The notes beneath the pieces are model-generated. The model saw nothing but the letters and a program-made list of their open reading frames with translations. It made no database searches and was not told the DNA's origin. Positions 15,070-59,977 of a stretch of DNA of 64,000 nucleotides are shown here, one piece after another. Each line of letters begins with the position of its first letter. The stretch's first letter is position 1. Position numbers and translations under genes: made by a program. This DNA comes from Phallusia mammillata. Lineage: Eukaryota. The stretch spans positions 24,304,001 through 24,368,000 of the forward strand of contig OZ281497.1 in assembly GCA_965637545.1 (NCBI GenBank). The letters are read 5' to 3'.

Positions 15070-15431
15070 CAGGGTCGTGCAACATATGGTCGCGAGCTAA
15101 AACACGGCCCACGACAGCTATTTGTGTTGCCTGCGCTGACTGCATCGAGTAGTCCATTGTATTATACTCTCCACGTTAATCGTAGGAAGTTGTTTATTTG
15201 GCATTTTTGACATTTTATTACAAGTTAAAGTTAAGAGAAATCTCTCTGGTTTAAAATGTTTCCCTCATGGACCCTTGGAAACAACCCAGGGACCCTTGAG
15301 CGAACTGCAGGTTGGAAATCACTGCAATAAATGTTTTTTTTTTTTTTTTTATCAAAATGTATTAAATTGGACCTCAGCATCGTTATACATGTAAATTGTG
15401 GCCCATTGTGATAAACAGTTGCACGTACCTG
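15070..15431. mobile_element. hAT MITE, 362 bp, older copy
   Basis: TIRs cagggtcgtgcaac / gttgcacgtacctg; TSD gcttagtc versus gcttaggc (1 mismatch). Confidence 0.75.
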
Positions 15432-16184
15432 GCTTAGGCAGATAAAATGGACGGCGTTTAACGTTAGACTTAGTTTATTGAGTATGAGTCAGGAGGTAAT
15501 AAGAGTGAGAAAGATAGTATGTGATATCGTTACAACACATGTGAACATATACAGCGAGAAAGGTGACGATGACGTAACTGTACAAATGGTAAAATGTGTT
15601 ATTTAGCAAGAAATGACAATTTAGGTCGAGTACTAAAATGCTGACGATGACGAAACAAATCGTACAATCACGTGACAAAGTCACTCGTATGATATTTGCG
15701 CATATTTGTACTGCAATACACGATACACAACACGTGCAAACGTTGGGTCTAAGTCATCAGTGCGTAAAATTCCAAATACAGTATTTTGTATAGATTAAGC
15801 TAAAAACGGTTTACAATTGGCAGCATTCAACCGTCGTATTTTATGATTATGTTTTGGATTTCTTACATGTTTAAATTACCATACGTTTGCAAACTGTTAA
15901 ATGATTGCTTTAGTAAAAGACAGTCACTGTTTCAACACGGATAAAGTCCTTTTGTGGCTGCCCTAGATTTGATGGTGGGCATGAAATTGGGGCGACAACA
16001 GCTTTAAATCCATTTTTCAAAGTACAAATCCGGATCAGTCCGGTAATGAAAATATGGCTGAAATGATACACACCCAAAAGTTCTTCATGAATATAATTTA
16101 CTGCTGCTTAATTACAATGTTGTAAGCAAGAAAATTGCGGCATGGATAAAAATTGCAGTGGTAAAACTGCATCGTCATATTGCT

Positions 16185-34366: not shown

Positions 34367-35235
34367 TTTCATTGACAAAAACCCGGAAAACATGTAGCCA
34401 AACTAGTTTTTTTGCACATTGAATAAAACTTCTTATATAGTGTCGAAATTTTATTTATTAAGGTGTAAAATAAATCGGGTGTGTAAAATGAAATTAGATA
34501 GTTGTAGAGTTAAATAAATTACCTCGAAAACGACTTTGTGTTAAGTTTTATTGTTTGAAGAGTTCTTATAATTGACAGTAAATCTATAATCGCATTACAC
34601 ATAACATTTTGTAACTGTTAAGCAGATCATACTCTGGCACTTTGGTTATCTATTCAAGGCACTTTTTATGTTGTATCTTGTACGGCCTGTTCTGTTAAGT
34701 TCCATGTAGCCCGAGCACTGCTTGTGTTAGCATAGACTGTGTTGTGTTCTAATATAAAATTTCAATACTTGATCATCCCGGCGATAAACAAATTTTAGTT
34801 TAAGGGTAGATTTTGGAAAAATACTTGACAATTACTCCCTAATGCGTTTGCCGCATTTATTACCTGAATATTTCAAAGCACTTATCTGTTGCTGTGGCAA
34901 GACTTATTGTGCTGTTTATGATGGTACTGGCTGTATCAATGCTTGACAAATAAACGGCTTGTGCCTTATCTATCAATTTATAAAAAATAGTTACAAAAAG
35001 AGATACGTTTGTATATAGCGTTTTAATTTGCTTTGTGTCTAAGCATGATATTTGCTTTCAAGTAATGTTTTTAAGTCGGAAAACAAAAAACGCACATTAT
35101 CATAAATATTGTCATGTTTCTTAAAATTTATCAGTTATCACACATTAAGCTAAAAGATATAACTTTTGAAAACGTTTGGGCAAATTGGGTAACTTCACCA
35201 CAGTAGCAGTAGAGCAAAGTCACCAGCAGGCAAGT

Positions 35236-39400: not shown

Positions 39401-39715
39401 TAAAACGCTGAAAAACGCATTAAGCTGAATGAGATGAGGTTAAAGACTGTAAGATTAACCTAATACGCTTTCGGTTGGTTGTAATATATTTACGTTTGTT
39501 GTTTTGAATTTTAGTTAAAATACAAGCTGGTGTTTATGATGTACGACGGGGAACCAGGCGAGAGCATCATACGAACCGCTGAAGCAGAAAAGTGTGACGC
39601 CATAGTGATGGGATCACGTGGTTTAGGAGCTATACGGCGCACCATCTTAGGATCTGTCAGCGATTACGTATTGCACCACTCCAAAATGCCAGTCTTGATT
39701 TGCCCAAAGAAATAA
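36456..39715 (+). CDS. Universal stress protein (UspA-like), 151 aa, 4 coding exons
   Basis: Exons 36456-36510 ([10 protein letters not shown]), 37321-37410, 38097-38206 (GC donor) and 39515-39715. C-terminal motif [33 protein letters not shown]. Confidence 0.92.
38850..39250. repeat. Dispersed repeat copy in USP intron 3; a diverged copy lies at ~51190-51400
   Basis: Collinear motifs gga(t/c)ttttcag, aaaagtacaacgtt(a/g)ca(t/c)tggagtg, atgtttttcacttt and aaaaacagcttta occur in both places. Confidence 0.7.
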
Positions 39716-41292
39716 AAAAAACGGCTGTGTCGAATTAGAGTAACTTCAGTTAACGACTGTCTCGTGTTATTTGTCCGAAAATGAACGTAAAATTTCGCAT
39801 GGTATTAATTTATCTTGTATTTGTCGGATTTAATGTTTTTTGATGTCGACTAGTGTACTATAGTTGCGAAAATTCGGTAAAACAACAAAATTTAATGCAA
39901 AAAGTGTTCACTATTTTGGAACACAATTTTATTTATCTCACCCATTACATTTTGGTTTTGTGTTTAACCTGTTCCAGTTTTTCATACATCATAATAAATG
40001 TAACATGAGTTTGGCAAATGATTTTTCTCGTTTTTTAGCAAATACGGCCGATTCTCCGAACAACGTGAACACTCAAAACCTGATACAATTACTGTGGTTT
40101 AAGGTGTGTAGGCCCTGACAGACATGCAAATACGCATAGTAACATCTAAGAAGAATATACATTCCTTACTAGGACCGGCCCTAAAAGTACACCAAGCCTT
40201 ATAAAGGCGTCATACCGAATCCAGCCAGTCTCAGGCCAGATATTCCTAGTGCGTGCCTTATGGAATGTTAGAAGGGGGGTGCTGGTTTCATTTAGTATAC
40301 TGCATTGAATAGGTCAGGTTTACTATGATTTATATAGCAGTGTGCCTTGATCGCTGGTATGCAAGGGCGTTCCATGGTTGATCTCACTAGGCCTGCCGTA
40401 CCATGGTGCATATTATTAGTATATAATTTTTTCAATTTAAGATTTACGCACGTAGCATAATTTGTTTTATGGAATGTGGATAGTTTTTCAAATTTGTATT
40501 ATGTATACTGTACTGGTTTGACGTAAAGTAATTGGCATACATAAAAGAATTTTGACATCTTTTTAATGAAAACAATTCAAGCACAAAATTCAGGAATGCA
40601 TTGAAGTACATCAACACAACAATAAGACACCAGTCGGCAATCATAACATAAGTCACAATGAAACGTCAAAAGTTTAATAATAATGAAAAAACAATCGTCA
40701 TCAAAACAATATACCGTCCCTTTGACGCCAGCTGACAAAACAACGACATAATCAATCAAAATCTTTAACAGATGGTGGAATTCCATGTAAGTATACCAGA
40801 ACAATTAAATGCCAAAATTATTCAGAAATTCAAAACAATAGACATATATTTCCAATTAGTTGAATTTACTGATACAGAATAACCACAAACCAATAACGTT
40901 TCAACACAAATGGCGGAATTCTATGCAGTTGACTTTACCAAAACAATTTAATGACAATATCAATCGAAACATAAACTAAACTTTAAGAATAATTCGAGGC
41001 ACTTAATTAAATTCAAGTCATACAGGTTGTCAGAAAATCCTGTTGTATGTTATGAATGTATTTGATGGCATTTGACAAATGCAGTTATTTAAACAGACCT
41101 GTACAAACCAGTAGGGAGCATCTGAGATATGGAGATTGCAGATTGATGAATCATTAGCAATGCCAAAAGAACGTATTTGTAGGAAAATTATTTTGGTGAA
41201 CTGGTAGTTGCGTTGAATAAAACTTTAAGAACAAAACTATTTTGCAAGTTCAATTAAAAATATTTTTATCACAGCTAACCATAACTAAGCAA

Positions 41293-42380
41293 ATGATGAA
41301 CTATTTTTTTCTTGCCATTTTTGTGGCTTCTTTTGTTGGCAAAGGTGAGGCTTGCTTCAGTCATTGTAATATTAATCTGCAATACTATAAAATATAAGTT
41401 TTCTGTGGCTGAATGTGTGTGGGATTAAAATATACATGGTATTCGTGCTTACTTGGACAGAGCAAACCAATCTTATTGTTGTTGCAGGGTTTGGAATCCA
41501 ATGTTTTTATTGCGATTATATTCCGAATGTGGCACACACTGCAGACTGTAAAGGACCAAATATCACAGATGATAATATAAAAGACTGTCCAGACGACACG
41601 ACTTGCAGTGTCCACAGAATAGGGTTTATGGGTGAATATATCTTATGGTTTTTGAGGCATAGTACCTAAAAATGCTCCAAATCGGCTAAATTAGGTTCCG
41701 GTCGAATCAACCGAGTCATTGTGACATCAGGTAAACAGTGGTAATACCCACCAGGATAGTTGTGTTTCATTACCTTTTTGTTCTGTGGGGTTTAAGGTTG
41801 CCTAGGCCAGCCTGCCTATAAATTATTTACTTATTGCCAGGAAAAAAAGGATTACGTTTGAAAAATTACTTAGTATTTTTTTGTTAAAACTCAAAGTAAA
41901 ACCTAGTACCATTCAAAGATCAAGTATTTTCTTGCTTTTCTGGAGTTTGCCGATAAAAAATTTAAGTAAAGATCTATACACCAAGTAGCTGCAACAGTAA
42001 CCGCCTTAAAGATATTCACATGACAAAAACCACGTCAACAGCAGTAGAAAAATAAATGCTTTTAACCTTTTAGAACAACTGAGATACCATCGTAATTGTA
42101 GTTCTGAAGGCGTTGGAGTTTTGGTACAAAGTTGCACAACAGGTGAGCATTAGTTTTGTTAACAACTTTTAATAACTGACAAGTTTTGTTCAACATTGTT
42201 TTAAACATTGGTATTTCTCTCTTAATTGTCTTATAGTTAGCACAACTTAATACATTGTCAGTGGACAAGTCCAGAGTGGTTGGGTAAAAGGGAAATTTTG
42301 CTTGAATGTAAACTGCTACCCTTACTTACGATGTTGTATATTTTTGTACTGTAGACCTCTGCAATACTGACAACAAATAG
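41293..42380 (+). CDS. Secreted Ly6/uPAR (three-finger) protein A1, 96 aa, 8 Cys, no GPI signal
   Basis: Exons 41293-41344, 41488-41631, 42074-42142, 42355-42380, all phase 1: MMNYFFLAIFVASFVGKGFGIQCFYCDYIPNVAHTADCKGPNITDDNIKDCPDDTTCSVHRIGFMEQLRYHRNCSSEGVGVLVQSCTTDLCNTDNK. C-x2-C start and CxxDLCN end are LU hallmarks. Confidence 0.9.
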
Positions 42381-42679
42381 ATGGGAATCAACAAAGGAAA
42401 ATTATATGGACCGTTGTGCACAATGAGTCCACCACAATAAACTGTTTTTCCCAGTGCTTTTGTATTATTGCTGATTTAACAGTCTCCAAGATAGATTACT
42501 TTTAAACAAACTAACAAAAACTGATTTTAATCGGTGAAAACAGGAAAAAAACAACGTTTTTTTAGTGACCCATGTTATATCTAACTAATCTTGTAGGTTA
42601 TTGCACCACCGACAATAAACTTAGTACAAGTAGCATAACTCAAAAAGCTACGGTCATATTCATTATCTTATACGACGTG

Positions 42680-43850
42680 GAGTTGAGTTGAGTTGAGTTT
42701 ATTTCGCTTGGCAAAAGAACACATAGCGACACAATCGCAGTAAAACAATCACCAAGGCGGAAATAGCTGCGAAGCGCGAAACAGTCAAGGAAACAATTGA
42801 TGGATCATGGCAAAACGCGGTGCAGCTACACCTTATTGCACAGCGTTATGTGACCAAGGCCCAGTTTGGCGCACAGTAAGTAAACACGACGAAGGACGAA
42901 ACGTTGGTTAAACCAGTCGAGGTACTTCTAACAAAACTAATCCCCGATAGATACATACTTGGAAGTAGATACATATCACGCTGCTTCAAGCTAAAAGTAA
43001 CTCATACAGGAGGAGATCAACTAAAAAACGAGCATGACTTTTCGTATTTCCTTTCATCTAATTTTCTAAGACAAGATGGGAAAATTTTCAGGGAAAATTT
43101 CACTTTCAGGGAAAATTAAATATTGTTAAACTGTAACCAAAATTGTGTCTTTGAAGCACTAATCATCTAATTTGTCAATTATCGACAGTTAAAGTTCTGA
43201 AAAAGTGCTCATTAGTCCCAGCACCCCACTTTTATTTCAGGTCTATCAAAAAGATTAGCCTAGTACCGCCTTGGTTTAAATGCGCTTAAACCCAGCACTT
43301 AAAGAGTTGTCAAAACGCCAGTAGCTCAACTTAATAGAACAATTAAACAGAACAATCCATAATTCGAAACAGAAGAACGATATCCATAAATGTTTAGCAA
43401 AACAATTTAAGGACACAATCACTCAGAGTTTCAACCAATCAGTAAAATGCGACAGAGTCAACTTAACAATTGATCGACAAAATTCAAATTCAATGAAACA
43501 CTAGCCAAAAATGTGTTTGCGTAAACAGTTTGAAGACATCAGAACAATAAAACGAAACAACCAATTTCCACAAAAAAGACAGAATTCAGGACAATTAGGC
43601 GACAAAATTATTTGAAATGCGAAACAGAATTAGGCAGGCTTCCAGACATGTAATTGAATTAAAAAGAATTCTTTGTGATCACATTGTGAAGTAAACAATT
43701 GCTTTAGCCTACTATGACATAGCAATAGAAAAATGGGGGTATTAAAGCAGGCCAATACATAACACTAATGTGCATTTCAGCTGGATAAGGCGCATTAAAA
43801 CAGTATAATAAAGAAAATTAAAATCGCCAGATTCATTAAAAAATTCTTTA
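42680..43850 (-). mobile_element. Possible decayed LINE 3' remnant (also ~57370-58500)
   Basis: Minus strand ends in aataaa followed by (ctcaa)n, resembling a non-LTR retrotransposon tail. No open RT frame recovered. Confidence 0.3.
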
Positions 43851-43909
43851 TTTTATTGTAAATATTGTTGTGTACTGTATAAATAACTTTCCTCTGTAGT
43901 ATACTGCAA

Positions 43910-44231
43910 CAGAGTTGTAAGCTGGACCGGGCTTTTCGGGATTGGGTTTCTTAAAAAAACGGGTTTGATTCGGGCCTGACTTTACACTCTGTGTTAGTAT
44001 TTATTTAAATACATTTGACTAGCTTGGTAGCTAGTTGCTGGACCTGATCTAATGCCAACCAAAGGTATATTGTGTCGGTTGTCTTGGTTATTTCTGAGGC
44101 TATATAATAAATACGCTTATAAATCAATCAAACTCTCGGGCCCAAACGTGCTTCCCAAAAACGATTTGGGTTCGGGCCGGGTTTCGAGCTTATACTTTTG
44201 GACTCCAGTTTTAGGCCCGTTTACAAACATG
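43910..44231. mobile_element. Degenerate hAT MITE of the 35236-35663 family
   Basis: cagagttgtaag left end; TSD tactgcaa / tattgcaa. Present at the same site in duplication copy 2, so it predates the duplication. Confidence 0.75.
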
Positions 44232-45837
44232 TATTGCAATAAAGTCTTTTGTGCACCTCACCTGATAAATTTATACTTATTCACTTTACAAAATTACACA
44301 AATTTAATTGTTGTTGCAGATTGCTGTGTTGTAGGTGTGGTTGTGCGTAAACCAGAAGCGTCTGTGGCGCCTATAATCCAATGCATATAAGGTGAGCCGT
44401 TGGTTTCTACAACTAACTTTCAATTACTGAGCAACTCTTTAACCACTACAGAAACTTTACGAAATTTAGAAGATCTTAATTATTGATTGATTCTATACGT
44501 TGCGATATACAGTTTATACAAATTGATACATTACAATAACAAGATAAAATGGATAATAGATGAGGTTTTAATTTGGTACAAAGGGTAATTTTGACAAGCC
44601 GTTTAGGTGAATATGACTAGCCTTTTTTTGCCTGATTTGGTTTTTATTGATTTTGAAACTTAATTTTCCTATTGTATTGCAGGCCTGTGCGATATCGGCA
44701 AGCAAGGGACAGAATATTCAAAACATCATCAAGATATTCTATGGAGTAGGGCTGAATAATTGATTCTTAAATACAATAAACAGACTTTCCAAAGCTCATG
44801 TGTTTTGCTCATTGTTTAGACTTTGAAAGCAGCTTACTTACAACAATTAAAAACAATAAAGATATTAAATGTACTTGAGATTTTTAATTACGAAATTACG
44901 GTTTGGGATGCAAATGGCAACAACGTCATTTTTTGCGAAGGACATCTTGTCTATGCCAAGTGAAGTAGGTAACACATACCACCTTGGAGTACGTTCAATG
45001 CAAGTTAGCACGATGCATAACGCATTTAGGCGTTGCCCGCCAACGAGGATAAATATATAACAAACAAACTTCCACCTTTTGGGATGAGAAAATTTGGGTA
45101 ACAAAAAGTTAGCTAGAAAGCCAGGGTATATATCGTTTTGAAATGTGTTTGACCACAATACAATAAAAGCGTTTAGAAAAAAGCACGAAATTGTACAACA
45201 CAAAAACTGTTCTAAAAAGAAGGTGAGGATTTTCACATTGTTTCTAAAACTTGTTCCAGTTTTTTCACCAATTTGAAGTGTTTCTATGGAACAACTGTAT
45301 TTAAGTATCAACGTTCATAGTGTTCTGTGTCGTTAATATTTATGTGCTTAGCTCAACCGAATCCCACTCTTATAGCACAATATGAAAACATAAACATCCA
45401 CTGTCCGAGTTTTATTTTGAAAACCTAGTCCTAGATAAATTGTCGGAATCTGTAGCAGTTTTCTTTATCACAACAATCCAACATAACAATAGATAGGAAT
45501 TCAAAACAAAAACAATTCTTTATAATTTCTGGGCATTTTTTCGCCACAGCAGTCCGGGTTAAACCTTTGTTGCATAGTTATATGGCCGGCAACAAATAAG
45601 ACCATATGCACAACAGCAGAACCATTCGAGATAGGTATAGGCGTGGAAAAGCCACGTTCGTTAATAGTGCTGTGTCTGACTTGATTTTATTAATTAGTTT
45701 TTGATGATTTAGGGTTTCAGCAAAAACTGTACTTATAGATAAAGATGTTCAATAAAAACGTTTTAGCGTATCAAATCTACATATATTCCCTTTCATAGCA
45801 GAAGATATTTGTAACAAACTTTACAAATAGCCAAACC

Positions 45838-47536
45838 ATGAATTTCCTCCTAGTTACAATGGTTGTAGCTGCTCTTTTTGGAAAAGGTAAATCTGACTTT
45901 TAAACGATTTGTGAAAATGGTTTAAAGCTTTAAGGTGTAGGCTACAAACGTATGTATAAACTGAGTTATTTGTATTTTTTCCACTGTATTGTTGTAATAC
46001 CAATTCTCAGTTGTGATTGGGCTTTAAATTGGGCCGAACCTGCATGGCTAGAATCAAAAGTGCGAGTCAACAACTCTCCCGGTGCTCATTGTTTGTCATA
46101 GTTAAGCCCTTAATGGCTTGAAATTTTAAAGTAATTTCGACTCGACATCAAGTCGTTTTTTTTCAAACTCAAGCTCGATGCGGAACCCAAAATATCGGCC
46201 CAACATACAACTATACTTCTGTTGTGTTAGATATACTGTTGTAATATTGTTGTACTTTTCTTGACCCGGGAGCTTATAAAACAATTAGGTAAGTTATGCA
46301 GTTGTATTGTTGCAGGATTTGCTATAGATTGTTACGTTTGTGAGTACACTCCGGCTCTACAACCACAGTCGACTTGCAGAGGCCCGAACGTGAGCGACAT
46401 CCACCGACAAACCTGTTCAGCAGATGTTGCGTCATGCAGCGTCCATGAAAACACTTTCCTCGGTAACTACGATATACGTTTGAAATAAAGTGCACAGAAT
46501 TGATCATAAAATTTATAAGAAATAGAATGGTCCAAATGTATGTAAAAAGCAACATACTTTACTGTTCAGACGTTTCGGCAAATGCTTATGTCATCATCAA
46601 TAATATATACCAGTGCAAAGCATAAGTCTGTTTATCTAATACTAGTTTTTTTAAAATTCGTATATTTTGTTCACCCGAACTCTAATCCAAACGTTTTCTT
46701 AAGCAGAAAATTAGAGCATTCCCAAACTTGCCTCATAAGAGTACCACGAGCAAAAACTAAGGCAAAAAGTGGTGACAAAATTTTAACATCAATTTATTGT
46801 AGGGTATCTCTAAACAACACGCTCCAGTATTTGTGGACACACCTTGTTTTATCTCCGTTCATTGCGAGACACCAAATTCGGTTGTATTGCGCATTCAACA
46901 GAACTACGCTAGTGTTGGCGCGTGGCGCTTAAAGATGTGCAACATTATTTTACCACCAGATTTATAGAGCTCGTCTGGCAAATGTATTTTTATTCCTATA
47001 TGCAGGTCGCCTTCATCAGGGATAATAACACTGATTGCGCGTAATGCCTAATATGTTATGCCTGGCAGCAACATCAACAGCTTACATATTATTTTTACCA
47101 GGATGGCTTTAATCTAAATGTTTCTAGAACATCCGAGAATTGTGCGTTGCTGTGGTGCTGGTCACGCAAATACGCGAATACAACACTGCACAGCAAGTAA
47201 GCGGTCCATTTGTTACTTTTATCAATTAAACAGTCATTTGCAAAACTTTACTAAGATAGAAGTACATTGCTGATTTAGTGCTTTGTTCAGTTACAAACGC
47301 TTTTGTATTATTATTATATTACAAAAGTCCTTATTTGGTAGTTATTTTTTTTTAGATTTAAATATTCGTGATAAAACTACAGAGAATATTCTTTAAAAAC
47401 TTAAACAAGCTAAAGCAATTTTGGGCCAAACTGTAAAATTTCTTTAAAAATTAAAAAAAAACTCGATTGTAAACTTGAGCAAAACATGCTTGTATTCTGT
47501 TTGTATATTACAGATCTATGCAATACTGCGAATTAA
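45838..47536 (+). CDS. Secreted Ly6/uPAR (three-finger) protein B1, 95 aa, 9 Cys
   Basis: Exons 45838-45886, 46316-46462, 47128-47196, 47514-47536: MNFLLVTMVVAALFGKGFAIDCYVCEYTPALQPQSTCRGPNVSDIHRQTCSADVASCSVHENTFLEHPRIVRCCGAGHANTRIQHCTANLCNTAN. Confidence 0.9.
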
Positions 47537-47705
47537 ATGTTCAAATCCCATGCAAGTAACGGAAAGGCAACCACAGACTGAATGGATTCATGTTGCAGAA
47601 CCTACTTCAACGCAATAAACGGATTTTTCCAGCACTGTTGTGTTTTTGTTAATTATATGAGACTAAAGTACAGCAAAGTTTCACATTGTACAATTAGCCT
47701 ATAGC

Positions 47706-48290
47706 TAGGGGTCGCCAACCCGCGGCTCCGGAGCGACTTTTTGATCCCTCCGATGCGGCTGAGTTTATGAAACCTGAAACTACCAAATGTTTACAACAAT
47801 TGATTTTGAATTCTGTGACAATTATGCCGGTCGCAAAAGTCAGAAATAAAAATGTTGCGCAACTGTACCTTACTGTGCCCGCTTCTAGTAGTTAGGTACA
47901 ACCGCTTCTATGCCAAGAATCGTGAAGTCTGAACGAGGCTAACTGCCATCGTGCAGCTTAACGCACAATCTGGGCTACAGTTTGTTTTAAATTGCAGTGT
48001 GTGTGCATGGGAAACAATGTTGTTCGATAACAGTTTTGTAACAATTTTAAACAAAAAAATAAAATACAGCGTGTGAAGAAAACGAAACATTTATTGCTAC
48101 ATGGGGAGATTCAATAGCTTTCACTGCTGACGAAACAGGTTTACCAATGTGCCTAATATGTAATAACAAATTAGCTTTCGGATTCCGTGTGACAAAATAG
48201 AGATTTTAAAGTGGCATTTTATTTAAAATTTAAATCGGTTTTGCGGCTCCCAGTGTTTTTTACAGTGCAAAACTGGACCGAAAGGTTTAG
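47706..48290. mobile_element. Truncated hAT MITE (also ~62811-63390)
   Basis: Left end taggggtcgccaacccgcggctccggagc, with tgcggctc again near the right end; right TIR lost. Confidence 0.55.
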
Positions 48291-48957
48291 GGTGCCCAAG
48301 TATAACTGCCCAAATAAGATGCCTATATATGTACTATTTTAGTCTGGATCATGAGCAATTGTTTTTATTTTCATTTAATAAGCAATTTTCTGCAAAAACA
48401 CACCTACACAACAGTTTTTACCAACACTTAGATCCTTTCTTGCAAAACAGGAATAAAGGCAACAATCACAAATGCACTAGCCAAGTTCATACTGATATCC
48501 TGGATTTATTGTCAGATGCATTACCATTATTGGTGGGCCTATTATCACAGATGGTGCATTAACAAGATAAAAAACAACCTGAAAGTTGTTTCAGTTTGAA
48601 ATGTGCAGCATATTACAGGCTATCTGTCAGAAATGATTACAAAATATACACAGTGCCAGTAGACAGTATACACAAAAAACATTTATTGTGATTCCAATTC
48701 CTTTATAGTGTATTCGTTGTAGAAAATGGCTTCATTGCAATCTTGTAGTGTGATGGAGCTTGGGGGTTTGTATTCGGTACATCATAACTAAACTTAGGCA
48801 TTGGTGAAAAAAATTCTTCTGCTTAGTATTGCTCAATTTGTTACAGCTAAACACCTTTAATTTTTTTACCTTGCCCAATTTATTGTTTTGTTGCCAAAAT
48901 TTGACGTCACAAAAAAAGCTGGAAAAGGTGTTTGCTTATTTGATATTCTTCCTTCAA

Positions 48958-50781
48958 GAATTTAAATGCTGGAATATAAATTACAGTGGGACTTATAATT
49001 TCGGAGGAAAATCGTTTTTGTGTGTCTAAGGTGGGCTGGTGAGTCTAAATTTGAATGATCACGTCTGTTAATCTTACTTCGGTAATTTTGTTTCGATTCA
49101 GGTAATACAGCGATGTGCCACAGGGCAAGAACATTTTCAGAAAACATGGACAGAGTGCAAACAGGCATTTGGATCTACGTCCAATGAATTTTTGCTCGGT
49201 AGGTTATTTGAAAGACTCGCGACACGCACAACAACAACAGCAACAGGAACAACGCGAACAACAGTTTGCAGGGTCTGAGTTCTTCCATATTTGAGGGTCT
49301 GTTTGTATTTGATTTAATTTACTGTGACGATAAGATAATTCCCCTTTGAATAACACTTGTGATAGGCTGGTGCAATCCCAACTGCGCCAGGAACGCAGGA
49401 ACGGCAGCTAGGCTCCAGAACAGTGGTCGGATTTAGCAGGTTCGCGCCGGTTCTATAGTATTGTCTCACTAAATTTTATGAGATCAGCGAACCAGTTAGC
49501 ATTATTGGTTACTGTCAATGGACTTTTTTGTAACAGAACCGGCTAAACAATATGACTTTTGTGATAGAACCGACTGACAAAAAAAATGAATCCCACTATT
49601 GCTCCGAAGCACTTCTGTATGCGACAGGGCATAGAAAAGGAAAATTGGAAACTACGACAGGAGCTTACAAAGCCACAGCAGGCTATAATTTTAGCCTATA
49701 CATTGTCGCATAGAGATATGCTTAGGAGATTTTCCTGACTGTGGTGTGTTAAGTTTTGGGTTTTCCGGTCTGTATGAACGTGTTGCAACACACATTAAGC
49801 AGTAGTGCTATTTTTGCAGCAATTTTCGGATTGGTCCGGAGACCGACAATTCGCGTTTGAACATATCGGGATATGTGACGTCATCCACTGCTCCCGATGC
49901 GATGTTTTATACAAACATGGTTGTTTTAGATCCGAATGGACGTCACAACGGAATGAAATTTAGCACTTACGACAAAGACAACGATATCGGGTGAGTTTCA
50001 AGCCTTGTTTGATTGCTGCAACCTGATGTTGTAATTCAGTTCAGATGAATATTTTGGCAAAGTAAGCATGTTTAAAGTTTTAATGCAAGGGAGGCGCCAT
50101 ATCGACAATAGAGAGACAAATTTTTAGCGGAGACTTTTATGTTTCAAGTAGGCTTTTTCCGGTTGATTCTGCAATAAAGCATCGTGCTTCTTTGGCACTC
50201 TTTAGTCACCGGTGATCACTAAGTGCGAGGCCCCTATAAGAGCCTTTCTGTCGTAAAATTAAGGTTGTGAGTAAGACGTTTGTGTTAAATAACCTGACCG
50301 ATTTGGATCAAAAGTACATAAAATGATTTTCAATTCAAACATTTTCCGTGATCAGCATCACACGGTGGTAGTCATAATTTAGTTACCTAATCTTTTAAAT
50401 CCTTATTACTTGTAGGCTATTTAGAGAACGCGTTTTTTCGTTATGCTACCGTTCCAAATTCATTAACATGTCTAGAAGTAAACCGACCACTTATTGATGA
50501 AAAGTTATCCTCATTAAATTTACATTGGCAGTTGGGGTATCGGTGTCACGATGGCCTTTTAAGGGTTGTCTTCCGGATCTGTGACAGTACCTTTGATCGT
50601 CACACTTTTCTAGTATCTAAGTTTTGCTCCCCGCTATATTTTTGAGAGGAACATACACTCTCGTCACCTTCTAATAAACTTACTGATTTGTAACCATGTC
50701 AATGTTTTTACCTAACAGAGGGGCCAATTGTACCAGTAGGGGGGTGGTGGCTGGTGGTACGGTCAGTGCGACTGGGCAAAC
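48958..50781 (+). pseudogene. Fibrinogen-related domain (FReD) pseudogene
   Basis: Exon 49102-49198 VIQRCATGQEHFQKTWTECKQAFGSTSNEFLL(G). Exon 49820-49990 NFRIGPETDNSRLNISGY...TAPDAM...HNGMKFSTYDKDNDI. Exon from 50719 GANCTSRG/GGGWWYGQCDWAN, with a 1-nt frameshift in a G run (50739-50744). A possible upstream exon ~48958-49038 (SGTY..LCV*GGL) carries a stop. Confidence 0.85.
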
Positions 50782-51660
50782 AGGCGGCACTGTTCAAACA
50801 AAAAGGCGTTCAAGGATGTGTTTTTTTTTGCAAGTCCGCTGTGACTAAAGATTTGCTTGCTATATCTGGTGTTGTTTTTTGTTTCGATCAACAATATATT
50901 CTGGGATAACTTTGCACAAATACAGCAAATGTCACATTTCATTGAAAAGTCATCGCACACCAAAGTAGCGATTTTTGCCAATTTCGTGTGTTCAAAGTAT
51001 GACGTTTCGAGTGACTATGTTTTAACATACTTAATGGATAACAGATTACCTTTCAGGCTACCATCGTCGTCTTTTAGGCCTCTATATCATCAATACCATG
51101 TGACAAGATGTTTGTATTACAGATGTGGCGTGTTGTAAGTAGGATGTGTAAATGGTTTGGGTTGTGCTGAGTATCTAAAATGTATTTAAATCTTGCGTTG
51201 GACTTTTCAGTGCTTATTACGTTAGAAAAAGTACAACGTTGCACTGGAGTGAAAAAAAAGTTTCGTATAATTTTAGGATTCATGTTTTTCACTTTCTGTG
51301 AACAATAGTTTATGTTTTGAGGTTCGCATACCTCAATGGGGGTGTTGCAACTAAAAACAGATTTAGCCAAAAAGGGGGTGTTGCAACTAAAAACAGCTTT
51401 AACCTAATGAAATGGTCGGTTTTGTTTTATTTGCAAAGACTGTAAGATTACCCTAATACTTAAAGCCTAATATTTACCTAATATGTTGCACAGCAAAGTT
51501 CACTAAAATCAATCGACATGATTAATTTAAAAAGGAAACCCAGCACTAAAACGCTGAATAACGCATTAAGCCGAATGAGATGAGGTTAAAGTCTGTAAGA
51601 TTAACCTAATACGCTTTCGGTTGGTTGTATTATATTTACGTTTGTTGTTTTGAATTTTAG

Positions 51661-51855
51661 TTAAAATACAAGCTGGTGTTTATGATGTACGACGGAGAAC
51701 CGGGCGAGAGCATCATACGAACCGCTGAAGCAGAAAAGTGTGACGCCATAGTGATGGGAGGTTTAGGAGCTATACGGCGCACCATCTTAGGATCTGTCAG
51801 CGATTACGTATTGCACCACTCCAAAATCCCAGTCTTGATTTGCCCAAAGAAATAA
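51661..51855 (+). pseudogene. Orphan duplicate of USP exon 4 with in-frame 6-nt deletion
   Basis: No exons 1-3 upstream; MGSRGLG becomes MGGLG (tcacgt lost at 51759/51760). Confidence 0.85.
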
Positions 51856-53498
51856 AAAAAAAACTTTACTGTATCGAATTAGAGGAACTTCAATTAACGA
51901 CTGTCTCGTGTTATTTGTCCGAAAATTAAACGCAAAATTTCCTGGTAATAATTTTCCTTGTATTTGTTGGATTAAATAGTTTTCGATATTGATTATTTTG
52001 TTGTAGTTGTTCAAAATAAAAAACGACAAAACTGATACATAAAATGTGCACTATTTTGGAACACAATTTTATTTATCTTACCCATTACATTTTGGTTTTG
52101 TGTTTCTCCTGTTCAAGTTTTTCATACATCATAATAAATGTAACATGAGTTTGGCAAATGATTTTTCTCGTTTTTTAGCAAATACGACCGATTCCTCGAA
52201 CAAAGGGAACACTCAAAACCTGATACAATTACTGTGGTTTCAAGCTGTGTAGGCTCCGACAGATATGCAAATATGCATAGTAACATCTAAGATGAATATA
52301 CATTCTTTACTAGGATCGGCCCTAAAACTACACCAAGCCTTATGAAGGCGTCATACCGAATCCAGCCAGTCTCAGGCCAGATGTTTCTAGTGCGTACCTT
52401 ATGGAATGTGGGAGGGGGTGCTGGTTTGATTTAGTATAATGCATTTAATAGGTCCGGTTTACTATGGTTTACTATGCAGTATGGCTTGATCGCTGGTATG
52501 CAAGGGCGTTTCATGGTTGATCTCACTAGGCCTGTCGTACCATGGTGCATATTATTAGTATATAATTTTGTCAATTTAAGATTTACGCACGTAGCATAAT
52601 TTGTTTTATGGAATGTGGATAGTTTTTAAAATTTGTGTTATGTATACTGTACTGGTTTGACGTAAGGTAATTGGCATGTATAAAAAAATTTGACATCTTT
52701 TTTTAAAACAAACAGACAATTCAAGCACAAAATTCAGGAATGCATTGAAGTACATCAACACAACAATAAGACACCAGTCGGCAATCATAACATAAGTCAC
52801 AATGAAACGTCACAATCATGAAGTTTAATAATAATGAAAAAACAATCGTCATTTCAAAACAATATAGCGTCTCTTTGACGCCAGCTGACAAAACAACGTC
52901 ATAATCAATCAAAACCTTTAACAAATGGTGGAATTCCATGTATTAAAGTATACCAGAACAATTAAATGCCAAAATTATCCAGAAATTCAAAACAATAGAC
53001 ATATATTTCCAATTAGTTAAATTTACTGATACAGAATAACCACAAACCAATAACGTTTCAACACAAATGGCGGAATTCTATGCAGTTGACTTTACCAAAA
53101 CAATTTAATGACAATATCAATCGAAACATAAACTAAACTTTAAAAAGAATTCGAGGCACTTAATTGAATTCAAGTCAAATAGGTATCAGAACATCCTGTT
53201 GTATGTTATGGATGCATTTGATGGCATTTGACAAATGCAGTTATTTAAGCAGACCTGTACAAACCAGTAGGGAGCATTTGAGATATGGAGATTGCAGATG
53301 GATGGATCATTAGCAATGCCAAAGGAACCTATTTGTAGCAAAATTATTTTGGTGAACTGGTAGTTGCGTTGATCAAAAGTTTAAAAACAAAACTAGTTTG
53401 CAAGTTTAAAGCAAAACTATCGCATTTTTTAATACCAATGCCACCGTATTTAGATTAAAAATGTTTTTGTCACAGCAAACTATATATCTAAGCAAATA

Positions 53499-56400
53499 AT
53501 GAATTATTTTTTTCTTGCCATTTTTGTAGCTTCTTTTGTTGGCAAAGGTGAGGCTAGCTTGATTCGTCATTGTCCACTACTGTAAAATATAACTTTTCTA
53601 AGGCTACATGTGTGAGGGACTAAAACGCACCTGGTAGTCTGCTTGTGTGGACAACAAGTAAAGCCAATCATATTGTTGTTGCAGGGCTTGGGATCCATTG
53701 TTACTCTTGCGTGTATGTTCCGAATATGGCACCTTATGCGGGTTGCAGAGGACCGAATATCAACGCTGAGTACATAGAAGACTGCCCAGAAGATACCTTT
53801 TGCAGTGTCCGCAAAAGACACTTTACTGGTGACTTGTTTTGTAGTTATCGTGTCATATTTGTGGTCTTTGCCTTATTTTTTTCCCGGTAGGCGGGCAACA
53901 CCTGAATGCGTTATGTTCACAATGAGTCCGCCACCCAGCTGCACGCTTCTATTGCAAGTCTGTTAAATCAATTTTTAATTTTTTTTTCATTATTTCAATT
54001 TATGGGGATGGTGACCTCCATTTGTTTTAACTTATCAGGACACCAGTGTGTTGATAGCAATGCTGCTTAAGTTTCTTACGTAAAAAACACGAGTCGCCGG
54101 GAGAGGATTAGAACCTATACCACTGGTGTGTTTCCACAGTCGATTTGGCAACATTTGGTCAAAACTAATAATTAATCGCTCAATGCTTTGCTAAAAGCAT
54201 GTTGTTTGTTGCTTTCTGCAGTTTTAATTATAACACGAAACGTTTAGCAAAACGTTTACCTTGATCACATAAAAAACTTGTCATGCAATTTTGTGATAAA
54301 CATCGCTGCGTCCAAAGTGGAAATGTGGTGTTAAGTGACATACAAGTTTTAAAGAAAATTTCGTTGTTTCACTACCTGTATGTTTGTAACATTCTAGAGC
54401 AGGGGTTTTCAACCTTTTTTTGCTCATGGCCCACTAAATTAGTAAAAAATGGCGTTGGCCCATTAACGTTTAATGAAAAACACCTAATGAAAAACTTCAT
54501 CAACGAAAAACACCAAGTTTCAACAACACAATGAAAAACTTCAACGAAAAGCGCCAAGTTTCAACAACACAATGAAAAACTTCAATGAAAAACTTCATCA
54601 ACGAAAAACACCAAGTTTCAACAACACAATAAATTAATCAGCTGAACATTCACACAAATTTAATGAGAAGGTTGTTGCTGTAGTTTGTCCACAAGACTTT
54701 GTATTCTGGGTGCAGTCGATGAGAGAGCGCACCGTATGTCAGCTGCAACATCAAGTCTGTTGCGCGGCTTGGATTTTATGTTCAATAGGGATGAAAATGC
54801 TGACTCACACAACCACGTGGTGGTGAAAGGCAGTAGTTTCATAAGACAATTTTTGCTGATTTGTGAATATGATGAGGACACTTGGATCCAGAATTCAGTG
54901 ACAGGCACATCTTCAAATAGGTCACGACAGCCTGAGTCATTTCTAAGGTCAATTAGTTCATCTTGTAACTCGTCATCCACTTGCTCAATATCAACACGAA
55001 ATGGATTCCTCACAAGTGTGAAAGCATCTCTGCTAAGCTCTGGAAAGTAGGATTTGAATTCAGTTTGTAGAGTACCAAGGTGGTCTGCCACTTCATCCCT
55101 AATCTCATCATCCACATCAGATATACATGCGAAACTGTGAAACATGTCAAAGTTACCATTTGTCACTTTACGTCTCCAATTGCCCAGCTTTTCAACAAAT
55201 GCCCTTGTAAAGTCCACAAACTGAATGATATCTTTTCCTTTTCCTTGCATTTTTAAATTCAGCTGGTTCAAAGCTTCAAAAATATCCACCAAATATGCCA
55301 AGCAAGAAAGGAACTTTACATTTTCAAAATGTACTGCAAGTTCAGGTTTTGCTGTTCCCAGAAAGACCTTTATCTCATCATGGAGCTCAAACACTCTGGC
55401 TACAAGGTTACCTCTTGACAGCCATCGTACTTTGGTGTAGTAGAGAAGTTGCTTATGTTCAGAATTTAGGCCTTCACACAACTTCCGGAACAATCGAGTA
55501 TTTAATGCGCTGTTTTTGATATAATTGACGCTTTTAACGACCACATCAAAAGCGCATTTAAGACCGTCAGGTAAGGTTTTTGAAGCTAATGCTGCGCGAT
55601 GAATAAAGCAGTGAGTGGTCACAAGATTAGGTGCTTTGTTCTTTACGAGCGTCTGGAATCCACTCTTGGCACCTAACATGGCTGGTGCGCCATCAGTGCA
55701 CACACCACACAAACTTGCCCAACTTATGTTCTCTTTATCAAAAAAATCCTCGACCTTAGCCATTACATCTTTTGCCTTTGTGGTGGTTTCCAATTCACTG
55801 CAAAAGAGCAGCTCTTCTTTCACATTTTTCTCTGTTACATAGCGAACAAAGGCCATTAGTTGAGCTGCTGAAGAAACATCTGTTGATTCATCCAGTTGCA
55901 GAGCAAACAAACCAAACAATGACTTATCTTTAACTTCGGTGACCACTTGCTCTTTTATATCATTCGCCATAAAATCAATTCTTCTCTGAACTGTGTTGTC
56001 CGACAAAGGAATTGACTTTATCTTTCTTTCACTTTCTTCACCCAATACATTTCGAACCATAGCCAGAGCACTTGGCTTTACAAGAGTCTCATCAATATTA
56101 TGAGCCTTTTTCTGTTTAGCAATAAGTAGGCTCACTTCAAAAGATGCCTCTGTCAGTTTCTTATCTGTACGTGCAAACGATCCAGTCTTGTCAAGTCGTT
56201 GACGCTTCAAACCGTTTTCCAGTCTTTTAAAGTATTCAATATCTTTTCCCTTAAGGCCAGGATGATTCTTTTCCAAATGATTTTGTAATTTGGATGGTCG
56301 CAGTGATTCATTACTCAAAACACGATAGCAAATGACACATTGACCCTTTTCCTCACCTCGATCACTGAATGAAGTAAACCCATACTTTATAAAATCTTGA

Positions 56401-57076
56401 TTGAATTTTCTTTTTGCCATGCTAAATTATTAAAATCTTTATGCTATTAAACGTTAAATTGAATCATGTCTAAAATCAAAATTGAATTTATTTAACGCTT
56501 GTACAGTATTTCAAATTCACTGCCCAGTGCCCACTCAACCAAAGTGTACCAGCATCAACGCAAGACAGCAACTTCCATAAACAGTTAAGCATTGTTAGCA
56601 GAAATTATGTCGTCACAAACGTAACGTTCTGTGTTGAATGTTCATAATGACATGATTTCTGATATCGCTGTATGCCAAGCTCTGTGGCCCACTGAAAACA
56701 GCGTCATGGCCCACTACTGGGCCATGGCCCATAGGTTGAAAACCTCTGTTCTAGAGGAACCGAGATACTATCGCAGGTGTGGTCTTGGAGGCAGTGGAGT
56801 TTTGGTACAGAATTGCACAACATGTGAGCATTCGTTTTAGTAATAACTTTACATAACTGACAGAATTGTTCAACATTGTTATAAACATTGGTATCTCAAT
56901 TGTCAATTGTCTTCTCTCAATTGTCTTATAGTTTGCACAAATTAATACATTTTATTGTGAGTGGACAAGTCCAGAGTGTTGTGTAAAAGTAAATTTGTCT
57001 TGGATATAAACTGCTACCCTTTTATGATGTTGTATATTTTTGTACTGTAGATCTCTGCAATAAAAAGAACGCATAG
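53499..57076 (+). CDS. Secreted Ly6/uPAR protein A2, 95 aa; a hAT transposon sits on its exon-3 acceptor
   Basis: Exons 53499-53547, 53685-53828, 56755-56823, 57051-57076: MNYFFLAIFVASFVGKGLGIHCYSCVYVPNMAPYAGCRGPNINAEYIEDCPEDTFCSVRKRHFTEEPRYYRRCGLGGSGVLVQNCTTYLCNKKNA. The ORF is intact if the element is spliced out. Confidence 0.82.
54487..54629. repeat. ~45-bp minisatellite (3 units) in the hAT subterminal region
   Basis: atgaaaaacttcatcaacgaaaaacaccaagtttcaacaacaca repeated with small indels. Confidence 0.8.
54660..56420 (-). CDS. hAT transposase (ZBED5/ZBED8/SCAND3-like), 586 aa, uninterrupted
   Basis: BED finger CVIC...HLEKNH; catalytic LDESTD, TDGAPAM and LCESAFS; HCFIH (CxxH) and VRWLSRG motifs; C-terminal dimerisation region. 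Confidence 0.96.
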   Translation of the reverse strand: MAKRKFNQDFIKYGFTSFSDRGEEKGQCVICYRVLSNESLRPSKLQNHLEKNHPGLKGKDIEYFKRLENGLKRQRLDKTGSFARTDKKLTEASFEVSLLIAKQKKAHNIDETLVKPSALAMVRNVLGEESERKIKSIPLSDNTVQRRIDFMANDIKEQVVTEVKDKSLFGLFALQLDESTDVSSAAQLMAFVRYVTEKNVKEELLFCSELETTTKAKDVMAKVEDFFDKENISWASLCGVCTDGAPAMLGAKSGFQTLVKNKAPNLVTTHCFIHRAALASKTLPDGLKCAFDVVVKSVNYIKNSALNTRLFRKLCEGLNSEHKQLLYYTKVRWLSRGNLVARVFELHDEIKVFLGTAKPELAVHFENVKFLSCLAYLVDIFEALNQLNLKMQGKGKDIIQFVDFTRAFVEKLGNWRRKVTNGNFDMFHSFACISDVDDEIRDEVADHLGTLQTEFKSYFPELSRDAFTLVRNPFRVDIEQVDDELQDELIDLRNDSGCRDLFEDVPVTEFWIQVSSSYSQISKNCLMKLLPFTTTWLCESAFSSLLNIKSKPRNRLDVAADIRCALSSTAPRIQSLVDKLQQQPSH

Positions 57077-58559
57077 ATGGGAATCAACCAAGATTGTGTG
57101 GACAATTGTGCACAAATAAGTCCACCACAATAAACTGATTGCCCAGTGCTTTTGTATTTTTGTTTATTTCATAGTCCATAAGACAGATTACTTGTAAACA
57201 AACTAACAAAAGTCGTTTTTGATTAGTAAAAACAGCAAACAACAACGTTCTTTTAGTGACACTGGTTATATGTAACTAATCTTGTAGGTTATTGCACCAC
57301 CGAAAATAAACTTAGTGCAAGCAGCATAATTTAAAAAGCTACGTTCATATGCATTATCTTAAACGACGTTGAGTTGAGATTATTTCGATTGGCAAAAGAA
57401 CACATAGCGACACAATCGCAGTAAAACAATCACCAAGACGGAAATAGCTGCGGAGCGCGAAACAGTCAAGGAAACAATTGATGGATCATGGCAAAACGCG
57501 ATGCAGCTACACCTTATTGCACAGCGTTATGTGACCAAGGCCTAGTTTGGCGCACAGTAAGTAAACACGACGAATGACGAAACGTTGGTTAAACCAGTCG
57601 AGGTACTTCTAACAAAACTAATAGCCCATAGTTACATACAGATCACTCTGCTTAAAGCTAAACGTAACTCATACAGGAGCAGATCAACTAAAAAAACGAG
57701 CATGACTTTTCGTATTTCCTTTCATCTAATTTTCTAAGACAAAATGACACTTTCAGGGAAAATTAAATATTGTTAAACTGTAACTAAAATTGTGTCTTTG
57801 AAGCACTAATCATCTAATTTGTCAATTATCGACAGTTAAAGTTCTGAAAAAGTGCTTATTAGTTCCAGCACCCCACTTTTATTTCAGGTCTATCAAAAAG
57901 ATTAGCCTAGTACCGCCTTGGTTTAAATGCGATTGAACCCAGCACTTAAAGAGTTGTCAAAACGCCAGTAGCTCAACTTAATAGAACAATTCAACAAAAC
58001 AATCCGTAATTCGAAACAGAAGAAGGATATCCATAAATGTTTAGCAAAACAATTTAAGGACACAATCAATCAGAGTTTTAACCAATCAGTTAAATGCGAC
58101 AGAGTCAACTTAACAATTGATCGACAACTTCAAATTCAATAAAACACTAGCCAAAATGTTATGTGTTTGCGTAAACAGTTTGAAGACATCAGAACAATAA
58201 AACGAAACAACCAATTTCCACAAAAAAGACAGAATTCAGGACAATTAGGCGACAATATTATTTAAAATGCAAAACAGAATTAGGCAGGCTTCCAGACATG
58301 TAATTGAATTAAAAAGAATTCTTTGTCATCACATTGTGAAGTAAACAATTGCTTTAGCCTACTATGACATATCAATAGAAAAATGGGGGTATTAAAGCAG
58401 GCCAATACATAACACTAATGTGCATTTCAGCTGGATAAGGCGCATTAAAACAGTATAATAAAGAAAATTAAAATCGCCAGATTCATCAAAAAATTCTTTA
58501 TTTTATTGTAAATATTGTTGTGTACTGTATAAATAACTTTCCTCTGTAGTATACTGCAA

Positions 58560-58886
58560 CAGAGTTGTAAGTTGGACCGGGCTTTTTGGGATTGGGTTTC
58601 TTAAAAAAACAGGTTTGATTCGGGCCTGACTTTACATTCTGTGTTAGTATTTATTTAAATACATTTGACTAGCTTGGTAGCTAGTTGCTGGACCTGATCT
58701 AATGCCAAACAGCTCTAAAACGCCTTGTTTAAGACCAAAGGTCTATTGTTGCGGTTGTCTTGGTTATTTCTGAGGCTATATAATGAACACGCTTATATAT
58801 CAATCAAACTCTCAGGCCCAAACGGTCTTCCCAAAAACGATTTGGGTTCGGGCCTGGTTTTAGTTTTAGGCCCGTTTACAGCTCTG
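58560..58886. mobile_element. hAT MITE of the 35236-35663 family (duplicate of 43910-44231)
   Basis: cagagttgtaa / ttacagctctg ends; perfect TSD tactgcaa. Confidence 0.8.
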
Positions 58887-59977
58887 TACTGCAATAAAGT
58901 TTTTGTGCACCTGGTAAATTTATACTTGTTCAGTTTACAAAATTACACAAATTTTATTGTTATTGCATATTGTTGTAAGTGTGGTTTTGCGTAAACCTGA
59001 AGCGTCTGTGGCGCCTATAATCCAATGCATATAAGGTGAGCCGTTGGTTTCTACAACTAACTTTCAATTACTGAGCAACTCTTTAACCACTACAGAAACT
59101 TTACGAAATTTAGAAGATCTTAATTATTGATTGATTCTATACGTTGCGATATACAGTTTATACAAATTGATACATTGCAATAACAGGATAAAAGGGATAA
59201 TTGATGATGTCTTAATTGGTTGCAAAGGGTATTTAGGTGAATATGACTGGCCTTTCTTTTTGCCTGATTTGGTTTTTATTGATTTTGAAACTTGATTTTC
59301 CTATTGTATTGCAGGCCTGTGCGATATCGGCAAGAAAGGGACAGAACATCCAAAAATTCGGCTGCATAATTGAGTCTTAAATACAATAAACAGACTTTCC
59401 AAAGCTCATGTGTTTTGTTCATTGTTTAGACTTTAAAAGCAGTTTACTTACAACAATCAAAACCTATTTTTAATTACGAAATTACGGTTTGGGATGCAAA
59501 TGGCAACAACGTTCTTTTTGCAAAGGACATTTTGTCTATACCAAGTGAAGTAGGTAACACATACCACCTGGAAGTACGTTAAATGCAAGTTAGCACGATG
59601 AAGGACTCATTGCGGGCATAACGCATTTAGGCGTTGCCCGCCACCGAGGACAAATATGTAACAAACAAACTTCCACCTTTTGGGATGAGACAACTTGGGT
59701 AACAAAAAGTTAGCTAGAAAGCCAGGGTATACATCGTTTTAAAATGTGTATGACCACAATACAATAAAAGCGTTTAGACAAAGCACGAAACTGTACAACA
59801 CAAAAACGGTTCTAAAAAGAAGGTGAGGACTTTCACTTTTTTTCTAAAACTTTTTCCAGTTTTTTCACAATTTGAAGTGTTTCTATGGAACAACTATAGT
59901 ATCTAAGTATCAACGTTCATAGTGTTCTGTGTCGTTAATATTTATGTGCTTAGCTCAACCGAATCCCACTCTTATAG

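Follow-up and report, generated by a model that had tools for sequence, protein, structure and literature searches.

A pair of predicted secreted Ly6/Quiver-related genes older than their flanks in a tandem duplication of the ascidian Phallusia mammillata

The stretch analysed here covers 64,000 nucleotides of the Phallusia mammillata assembly GCA_965637545.1 (240 Mb), positions 24,304,001 to 24,368,000 of contig OZ281497.1; this whole stretch is referred to as the window. It carries two copies, A1 and A2, of a small gene of four exons, each lying in one unit of a tandem duplication. The contig was read for 20 kb before and 78 kb after the window; positions above 64000 are given relative to the window, and 24304000 is to be added for the contig coordinate. 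Reading past the window reveals three tandem units, the third starting just outside it. The duplication starts at 39232 and 51385, and hence the second copy of the universal stress protein (USP) gene consists of the last exon only. A 4.4-kb deletion has removed the A gene from unit 3.

39232..51384, plus strand: unit 1, delimited by self-comparison, with the USP last exon, A1, B1 and a fibrinogen-domain fragment
51385..64000, continuing to contig position 24372821, plus strand: unit 2, with a fragment of the USP last exon, A2 and B2
68822 to about 73100 (relative to the window): unit 3, with the USP exon and a third B gene (B3), without A
39515..39715, plus strand: last exon of the USP gene, present in units 2 and 3 without the earlier exons
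41293..42381, plus strand: A1, exons 41293/41296-41344, 41488-41631, 42074-42142 and 42355-42381
53499..57077, plus strand: A2, exons 53499-53547, 53685-53828, 56755-56823 and 57051-57077
45838..47536, plus strand: B1, with the same four-exon layout as A and a ninth Cys
60905..62620, plus strand: B2, a young copy of B1 with 7 nonsynonymous and 3 synonymous changes
40651..45044, no strand assigned: A-bearing stretch deleted from unit 3; the junction lies near contig 24374219-24374230 and is present in 4/4 sequencing runs

A1 and A2 are real genes lying next to each other, and each codes for a small protein, predicted to be secreted, that is related to Ly6/Quiver. The introns of A1 follow the GT-AG rule and are in phase 1. 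Both proteins have eight cysteines, spaced identically in the two, while the mature part of A1 is acidic (isoelectric point 4.76) and that of A2 is basic (8.17), with net charges of -5 and +2, respectively. No insertion or deletion separates the coding parts, both frames are intact and the signal peptide, delimited by eye, is unchanged. The exons differ at 2/49 (both silent), 41/144, 16/69 and 7/28 positions, and the mature proteins, counted from residue 17, differ at 36 of 79 residues (46%). The hand counts of a preliminary description of this DNA were reproduced here: 41/144 for exon 2 and 36/79 for the mature proteins with all eight Cys kept, 4/147 for exon 2 of B1 and B2, and three substitutions in USP exon 4, to which a 6-bp in-frame deletion in copy 2 must be added. 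Its claim of identical signal peptides holds from position 41296; an extra in-frame ATG at 41293 is found in A1 and has no counterpart in A2.

Six further members of the eight-Cys cluster (C, D, E1-E3 and F) lie at contig 24391494-24409000; the last exon of D was not found, E1-E3 are near-identical and F is broken (start codon lost and a frameshift, by eye). The E repeats likewise show patchy divergence. Throughout the genome, A1 and A2 are each other's best match at 52% identity, with the next at 46% and 47% among 29 and 44 matches. They group together with 98% support in an unrooted tree of ten aligned cluster genes, from which F and the related genes of another contig (C1) were left out. 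A DNA search of the genome with A1 returned A2 and intron repeats only. Protein and DNA searches of the assembly gave no third A gene, and the concern that a third nearby A would make A1 and A2 non-corresponding cluster members thus falls away.

Units 1 and 2 were compared over 9796 aligned columns. To the right of A they differ at 317 of 8185 columns (3.9%), which we take as background, and the 554 columns upstream of A are at the same level (21 differences, 3.8%). Between these lies an island of divergence.

41161..42676 (unit-1 coordinates), plus strand: divergence island, from the windowed comparison of units 1 and 2

Divergence within it is 11% in the proximal upstream part, 18% in intron 1 (23/131 to 26/134 in two alignments), 28.5% in exon 2, about 30% in what remains of intron 2, 23% in exon 3, 10% in intron 3 and 14% in the 3' flank. 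The highest 150-column window in A holds 46 mismatches, against a maximum of 16 outside A and of 23 in 2000 shuffles; the sliding-window check suggested in the preliminary description thus shows divergence that is far from uniform, and its statement that intron 1 is clearly diverged is borne out. On the right the island ends in a step, with divergence falling from 12% to 3% near 42680. Right of A, the longest identical run, the unit junction aside, is 178 compared with about 146 expected, and so even a background is what one recent event would give.

Intron 2 is 442 bp long in A1 and 2926 bp in A2. It had been described as not alignable, which is largely correct, but the failure stems mostly from insertions: A2 has gained a hAT element of 2349 bp, and each copy carries a dispersed repeat of its own. 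With the insertions removed a faint match at about 30% mismatch remains (z-score 3.2 global, 4.7 local and 2.4 for the 3' part alone).

53867..54118, no strand assigned: old dispersed repeat in intron 2 of A2 only; other copies are 73-77% alike
41725..41878, no strand assigned: a different old dispersed repeat in intron 2 of A1 only; the longest matches are 73-81% alike

Silent and non-coding sites have diverged too, as the preliminary description had it. In codons for identical residues, silent differences number 10/42 for A1/A2, 9/67 for B1/B3 and 1/73 for B1/B2, and the introns plus 3' flank of A differ at 100/762 positions against the 3.9% background (p = 9e-23). Because silent and intron sites share in the divergence, A1 and A2 appear to have split before the 12-kb duplication and, on this evidence, predate the sequence around them. 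To the left and right of the island divergence is that of the background, as it would be if A1 and A2 had been born with the young duplication and one copy had then evolved very fast. Yet the silent sites (10/42 versus 1/73), the introns and 3' flank, the separate old repeat in each intron 2 and the fact that both lineages have changed all speak against such a birth; short of a local mutation hotspot, the silent-site divergence refutes it, and we regard it as highly improbable.

The B genes of the same array serve as a clock. The young pair B1/B2 differs at 3/49, 4/147, 3/69 and 0/24 exon positions, whereas the old pair B1/B3 differs by 15-30% in its introns, with a nonsynonymous rate (dN) of 0.07 and a synonymous rate (dS) of 0.24. 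The ninth, unpaired Cys of B1, at window position 47148, is Ser in B2 and B3. Introns 1 and 3 of A differ by 10-19% and the residue of intron 2 by about 30%. At identical-residue codons A1/A2 departs strongly from B1/B2 (p = 0.0002, Fisher) and not from B1/B3 (p = 0.20), so that at silent and intron sites the age of the A island is not distinguishable from that of B1/B3.

The exceptional feature of A is, as far as these comparisons go, amino-acid change and not age. Nei-Gojobori estimates for the mature A1/A2 pair, which complete the check proposed in the preliminary description, are dN 0.30 and dS 0.51. The proportion of nonsynonymous differences (pN) is 0.25 for A1/A2 and 0.07 for B1/B3 (p = 1.4e-6). 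Changes at the three codon positions number 16/23/25 for A1/A2 and 8/3/12 for B1/B3, and second positions alone give 23/78 versus 3/78 (p = 2e-5). Both A lineages have changed, the outgroup state being kept at 14 sites in one and 9 in the other. When neutral change of 27% was simulated, the frame and exactly eight Cys were retained in 4 of 20000 trials. These observations fit diversifying selection on a fixed Cys frame.

Unit 2 is a mosaic. At 39650-40270 units 2 and 3 differ by 2-2.5% and unit 1 differs by 8.5-12%, its distance from unit 2 being 9.5-12%, while in gene B units 1 and 2 differ by 1.5-8.5% and unit 3 by 12-33% in ten of 11 windows. Unit 2 therefore resembles unit 3 to the left of about 52750 and unit 1 to the right of there, with the exception of A2. 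Individual sites show that unit 2 switches allegiance four times within 40431-40606.

39688..40656, plus strand: patchwork zone; unit 3 state to 40431, unit 1 at 40460-40523, unit 3 at 40527-40569 and unit 1 from 40606

Further patches common to units 1 and 2 occur in the USP exon, and together with the switches of allegiance they establish exchange to the left of A. We infer that the mosaic records an unequal crossover of unit 3 with unit 1 and smaller exchanges that came after it.

Other samples were consulted through assembled contigs. The A1-B1 stretch is present in eight of 24 listed runs, in five of them over more than half its length, and five runs were compared. Four of these are samples of the same organism from three studies, one of which is perhaps the source of the assembly; the fifth, X8, carries another organism label and gives scattered short pieces at a depth of 2-5, which are uninformative. 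A1 lies in a single contig in 4/4 runs, with 1, 1 and 0 differences in 1425 bp (X1, X4 and X5) and eight in 2133 bp (X2). Exons 1 and 2 of A2 show zero differences in 3/3 runs (X1, X2 and X4), and X5 shows the 3' half of A2. Contigs drop rare variants and, as is evident from the many variant letters that equal the letter of the paralog, merge the units where these are alike and are unable to reveal ongoing conversion; their depth is too noisy to serve as copy number. In X2, and partly in X1, the unit 2 contigs are shallower than those of unit 1 (5.4-6.3 versus 9.2 in X2), a weak hint of copy-number variation.

This shallower depth is also what would be seen if two haplotypes had been written in tandem by the assembler, as the preliminary description had considered, and no listed contig spans the whole array. 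The samples argue against such an artefact, however: both genes are found in all same-organism runs compared (A1 in 4/4, A2 in 3/3), units 1 and 2 differ by 3.9% where the A1 region differs by 0-0.4% between samples, unit 2 is a mosaic of units 1 and 3, and the 162 kb read contain no N. The probability that we attach to an artefact is close to negligible. The idea that many alleles exist at present finds no echo either, as no allele series was seen and A1 and A2 are nearly invariant across the samples compared.

Of the two origins put forward in the preliminary description, old paralogs with replaced flanks or long-lived balanced haplotypes, the former fits best. We hold it about evenly balanced that A2 is the old sister A gene, that of unit 3, moved into the new unit 2 by unequal crossover, with selection keeping the mature domains different. 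An old duplication would have produced the arrangements USP-A1-B1 and usp-A3-B3, after which exposed residues of A1 and A3 would have changed fast. Unequal crossing-over immediately to the right of A, at the step near 42680, would then have created unit 2 from the A3-derived gene and a copy of B1. Further exchanges between units 1 and 2 would have replaced patches to the left of A, including 550 bp upstream, and never exons 2 and 3. Unit 3 would subsequently have lost its now redundant A, leaving A2 as the last patch of unit 3 in unit 2. The silent divergence of A1/A2 cannot be told from that of B1/B3, which makes unit 3's old A the most likely source of A2. Living paralogs were also considered as donors and rejected: the residuals of intron 2 match none of B1, B3, C, D and E1 (z at most 1.7), and apart from A1 no exon-2 match exceeds 47%.

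Several observations weigh against this history. Since the donor A3 has been lost, A2 cannot be traced back to it directly. On its left side the island fades out gradually, with no step, and the upstream 554 bases at 3.8% call for a further exchange, roughly as old as the crossover. The background is mildly over-dispersed (variance 10.3, mean 5.8). By the Nei-Gojobori count, synonymous divergence is higher for A1/A2 (17.5/47.5) than for B1/B3 (10.5/52, p = 0.048), and by that count the core of A may be older than unit 3. Finally, the dN/dS ratio of A1/A2 is 0.6, which is not above 1, and positive selection is unproven.

The upstream flank is accommodated without a separate exchange if A1 and A2 descend from a single locus whose ancient balanced alleles were fixed side by side, as a heterogeneous duplication, by an unequal crossover between haplotypes near 40450-40600. 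One crossover would be enough, and the upstream flank at background (21/554), the graded peak with its centre over exons 2 to 3 and the symmetric change with its reversal of charge would agree with it. Such alleles must, however, have persisted for as long as the B1/B3 paralogs. No third allele was seen in contigs, which hide rare variants: A1 differs at 0-1 positions in 1425 bp in three runs and at eight in 2133 bp in the fourth, and exons 1 and 2 of A2 are unchanged in three. The right edge is a sharp step, and a donor of suitable age is at hand in the deleted A of unit 3. We consider captured alleles unlikely.

The transfer of unit 3's old A could also have taken place with no selection for difference, given loose constraint outside the Cys frame and with divergence and intron transposons blocking exchange. 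Since dN/dS lies below 1, loose constraint stays a live rival to diversifying selection: pN is not above the proportion of synonymous differences (p = 0.10), four-fold degenerate sites (5/17) match the amino-acid rate, and a splice site of A2 has tolerated both a transposon and a footprint (see below). Against this stand the strong constraint on the old pair B1/B3 in the same array (dN 0.07, dS 0.24), a pN that exceeds the divergence of introns 1 and 3 about twofold (p = 0.001, although those introns are perhaps partly homogenised), the unchanged signal peptide and the zero indels in the coding part. A history of this kind, with no selection for difference, seems to us unlikely, slightly more so than captured alleles.

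Intron 2 of A2 contains an intact and young hAT element.

54400..56748, minus strand: hAT element of 2349 bp with terminal inverted repeats and an open reading frame of 586 amino acids (56420-54660)

It sits in the splice acceptor of exon 3, with 8-bp target duplications at 54392-54399 and 56749-56756. The target comprises the acceptor and two exon bases, and as a result the acceptor is duplicated. The model of A2 from the preliminary description uses the downstream acceptor; the original one would read into the element and reach a stop with six Cys. Three states of the site were seen: the element is present in the assembly and X4, X2 has a clean single site (a skip of 2357) and X1 has five extra bases (a skip of 2352). 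The five bases are probably a footprint of excision such as has been described for hAT elements (PMC3499496); its first AG would shift the frame of A2. Because two of the three acceptor states would disturb splicing, A2 may be decaying, or losing its function in some animals. Seven other copies at 99-100% are among 43 genome matches, and all five copies examined have an 8-bp target duplication with a central TA, which can be set beside the Buster-like consensus nnnTAnnn (PMC3499496). The putative transposase has weak matches to a BED finger and a hAT dimerisation region in the right order, at E values of 0.049 and 0.0058 that fall short of the Pfam cut-offs; a plasmid search with it gave no match. 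Near-identical intact copies and a polymorphic site make it likely that the family is active now, and it is a candidate native transposon tool for ascidians.

A search of 1.84 billion proteins with a profile built from 14 exon-2 pieces found 14 relatives; of the ten looked up, seven are from Clavelina and one is from Phallusia. A database protein labelled P. mammillata agrees with two exons of the assembly, at 52 of 52 residues (following four residues that lie beyond the exon) and at 25 of 27, which makes this ascidian or a very close relative the likely source of the DNA. Three of the 14 pass the QVR cut-off and 11 match QVR or UPAR_LY6 at E <= 0.1. The scans of the cluster with PF17064 (Quiver) and PF00021 (UPAR_LY6) covered single exons: exon 2 of A1, A2 and B1 gave no Pfam match, while four of the 14 exon-2 pieces match QVR (best E 0.0034). 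Against a profile of 15 domains from the relatives A1 scores 30.0 and A2 28.2 bits, reached by 0/200 Cys-fixed shuffles each, a test that is partly circular since the relatives were found with exon 2 of A. Word-indexed protein searches with A1 exon 2 returned nothing, a PDB profile search gave zero matches, and in a metagenome scan three of 163 candidate stretches passed, all unrelated and none with the Cys frame or the other exons. An atlas search reached best scores of 0.83-0.76, all under 0.9, with some Quiver, Ly6 and toxin-like clusters, and serves as a lead only. An AlphaFold model of one relative (P0005) had a mean pLDDT of 41 and was not used. Large arrays of related Ly6/Quiver-type exons lie on contig C1 near 2.6-3.05 Mb, 17.5 Mb and 35.5-35.7 Mb; some recur every 1.4 kb and perhaps belong to multi-domain genes.

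The A domain spans 78 residues after the signal exon, within the 60-90 of LU domains, and its exons of 49/144/69/27 nt are all separated by phase-1 introns; four exons are found where three are usual for LU genes (PMC6600238). Cys-x2-Cys is present at the N-terminus, and the last Cys is followed by an unglycosylated Asn. A has eight of the ten LU cysteines (bonds 1-5, 2-3, 4-6, 7-8 and 9-10) and a single Cys-x4-Cys-Asn at its C-terminus instead of the Cys-Cys-x4-Cys-Asn given in PMC4839075. The Quiver/Ly6 proteins of the ascidians Clavelina lepadiformis and P. mammillata share with A the spacing of Cys 1-6, an Arg-x-Cys motif, the terminal Cys-x4-Cys-Asn and the exon 2/3 boundary. They end in Cys-x3-Cys-x4-Cys-Asn and, unlike A, have ten Cys per domain (13 of 15; one has nine and one 11) and mostly a hydrophobic tail. 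In the alignment with the 15 domains, Cys 1-6, 9 and 10 are retained in the cluster proteins, Cys 7 and 8 are absent and the third loop is shorter; the cluster proteins end close behind Cys-Asn, in A after 2-4 more residues, and have no anchor tail. We therefore file A as probably LU-derived and not as a canonical LU member. The cluster family is, from its alignment, an unusual variant: at least nine complete genes at the locus encode a lone Ly6-type domain without the 7-8 Cys pair.

According to a review (PMC6600238), single LU domains cannot do without the 7-8 bond, which is very rarely lost; if the cluster proteins fold, they are an exception to this rule. The same pair is missing, by alignment, from uPAR domain I, C4.4A, Haldisin and TGF-beta receptor 2 (PMC6600238). 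SLURP proteins and snake three-finger toxins are, like A, small, anchor-less and clustered, with a conserved Cys frame and variable loops (PMC4839075, PMC6600238), but eight-Cys toxins lose the 2-3 bond and keep 7-8 where A keeps 2-3 and loses 7-8 (PMC6600238). No match above cut-off implies toxin activity. By this likeness A would act as a secreted Ly6-type binding protein. We suggest tentatively that A1 and A2 bind different extracellular partners, one protein being acidic and the other basic, most likely in defence or recognition; the role is proposed from analogy and from the pattern of change. A combined picture, in which a gene for recognition or defence had ancient balanced alleles (about 25-30% silent divergence, opposite charge) that one crossover locked together as permanent heterozygotes, and in which the protein adopts a stand-alone secreted Ly6-type fold without the 7-8 disulfide, is distinctly unlikely, a shade more so than the history with no selection for difference. 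Our literature search, with subscription journals mostly outside its scope, found no ascidian paper on such genes, and in the accessible part of a 2026 invertebrate survey the lancelet is the only chordate covered (PMC13719153).

Old DNA in a young duplicate is a known pattern (PMC3924837, PMC6121789). Human red/green opsin exon 5 and RHD/RHCE show, as here, a local peak in coding exons with low flanks and exchange between the copies (PMC3924837), and A displays three signs of a selected divergence peak under conversion: a local peak, low flanks and traces of exchange. In contrast to those loci, the peak here takes in the whole gene with its introns, and the flanks appear to reflect one recent crossover plus patches and not steady conversion. 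The heterogeneous duplications of mosquito ace-1 likewise place two unlike versions of a gene next to each other in otherwise similar repeats (PMC6121789); here, single-copy alleles were not seen in the four samples, whose contigs show presence and not absence, and the versions differ at 46% of mature residues. At the present locus the parts can be seen together: B1/B3 as an old pair for dating, B1/B2 as a young one, the recombination patchwork, and the likely donor, now deleted. The locus suggests that gene A is the member of its cluster under pressure to differ, which makes it the first candidate for study.

Further features were noted in and around the array.

48800..51170, plus strand: broken fibrinogen-domain gene fragment between the units, 71-84% like a cluster on another contig (C2)

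The fragment is frameshifted, was copied from the C2 cluster with its introns and was duplicated together with the unit. Unit 2 has an insertion of 2.7 kb (contig 24368422-24371109) with two 521-bp repeats at 98.7% and no long open reading frame. Clusters of AACAAT occur at 40500-41000 (upstream of A), at 43000-43700 (between A and B) and in the unit 2 copies of both, with a strand bias (seven plus and zero minus in 40500-40999). The stretch concerned (40560-41200) is found in the array only, has no long open reading frame and no Rfam match, and is perhaps regulatory; Rfam gave zero matches over 36000-64000 as a whole.

Elsewhere in the window, an older tandem array of aldo-keto reductase genes occupies 3658-21400 on the minus strand, with up to three copies at 72-90%. 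A three-exon gene (by eye) at 31477-34367 encodes a small protein, hydrophobic at its start and Gly/Tyr-rich at its end; the last exon has no Pfam match. The gene at 26000-29960 combines a weak C-type lectin match with a secretin-family seven-transmembrane domain and is likely to encode an adhesion-type receptor. Beyond the window, two stretches of 1194 bp (contig 24413912-24415105 and 24423393-24424586) are the same at every base.

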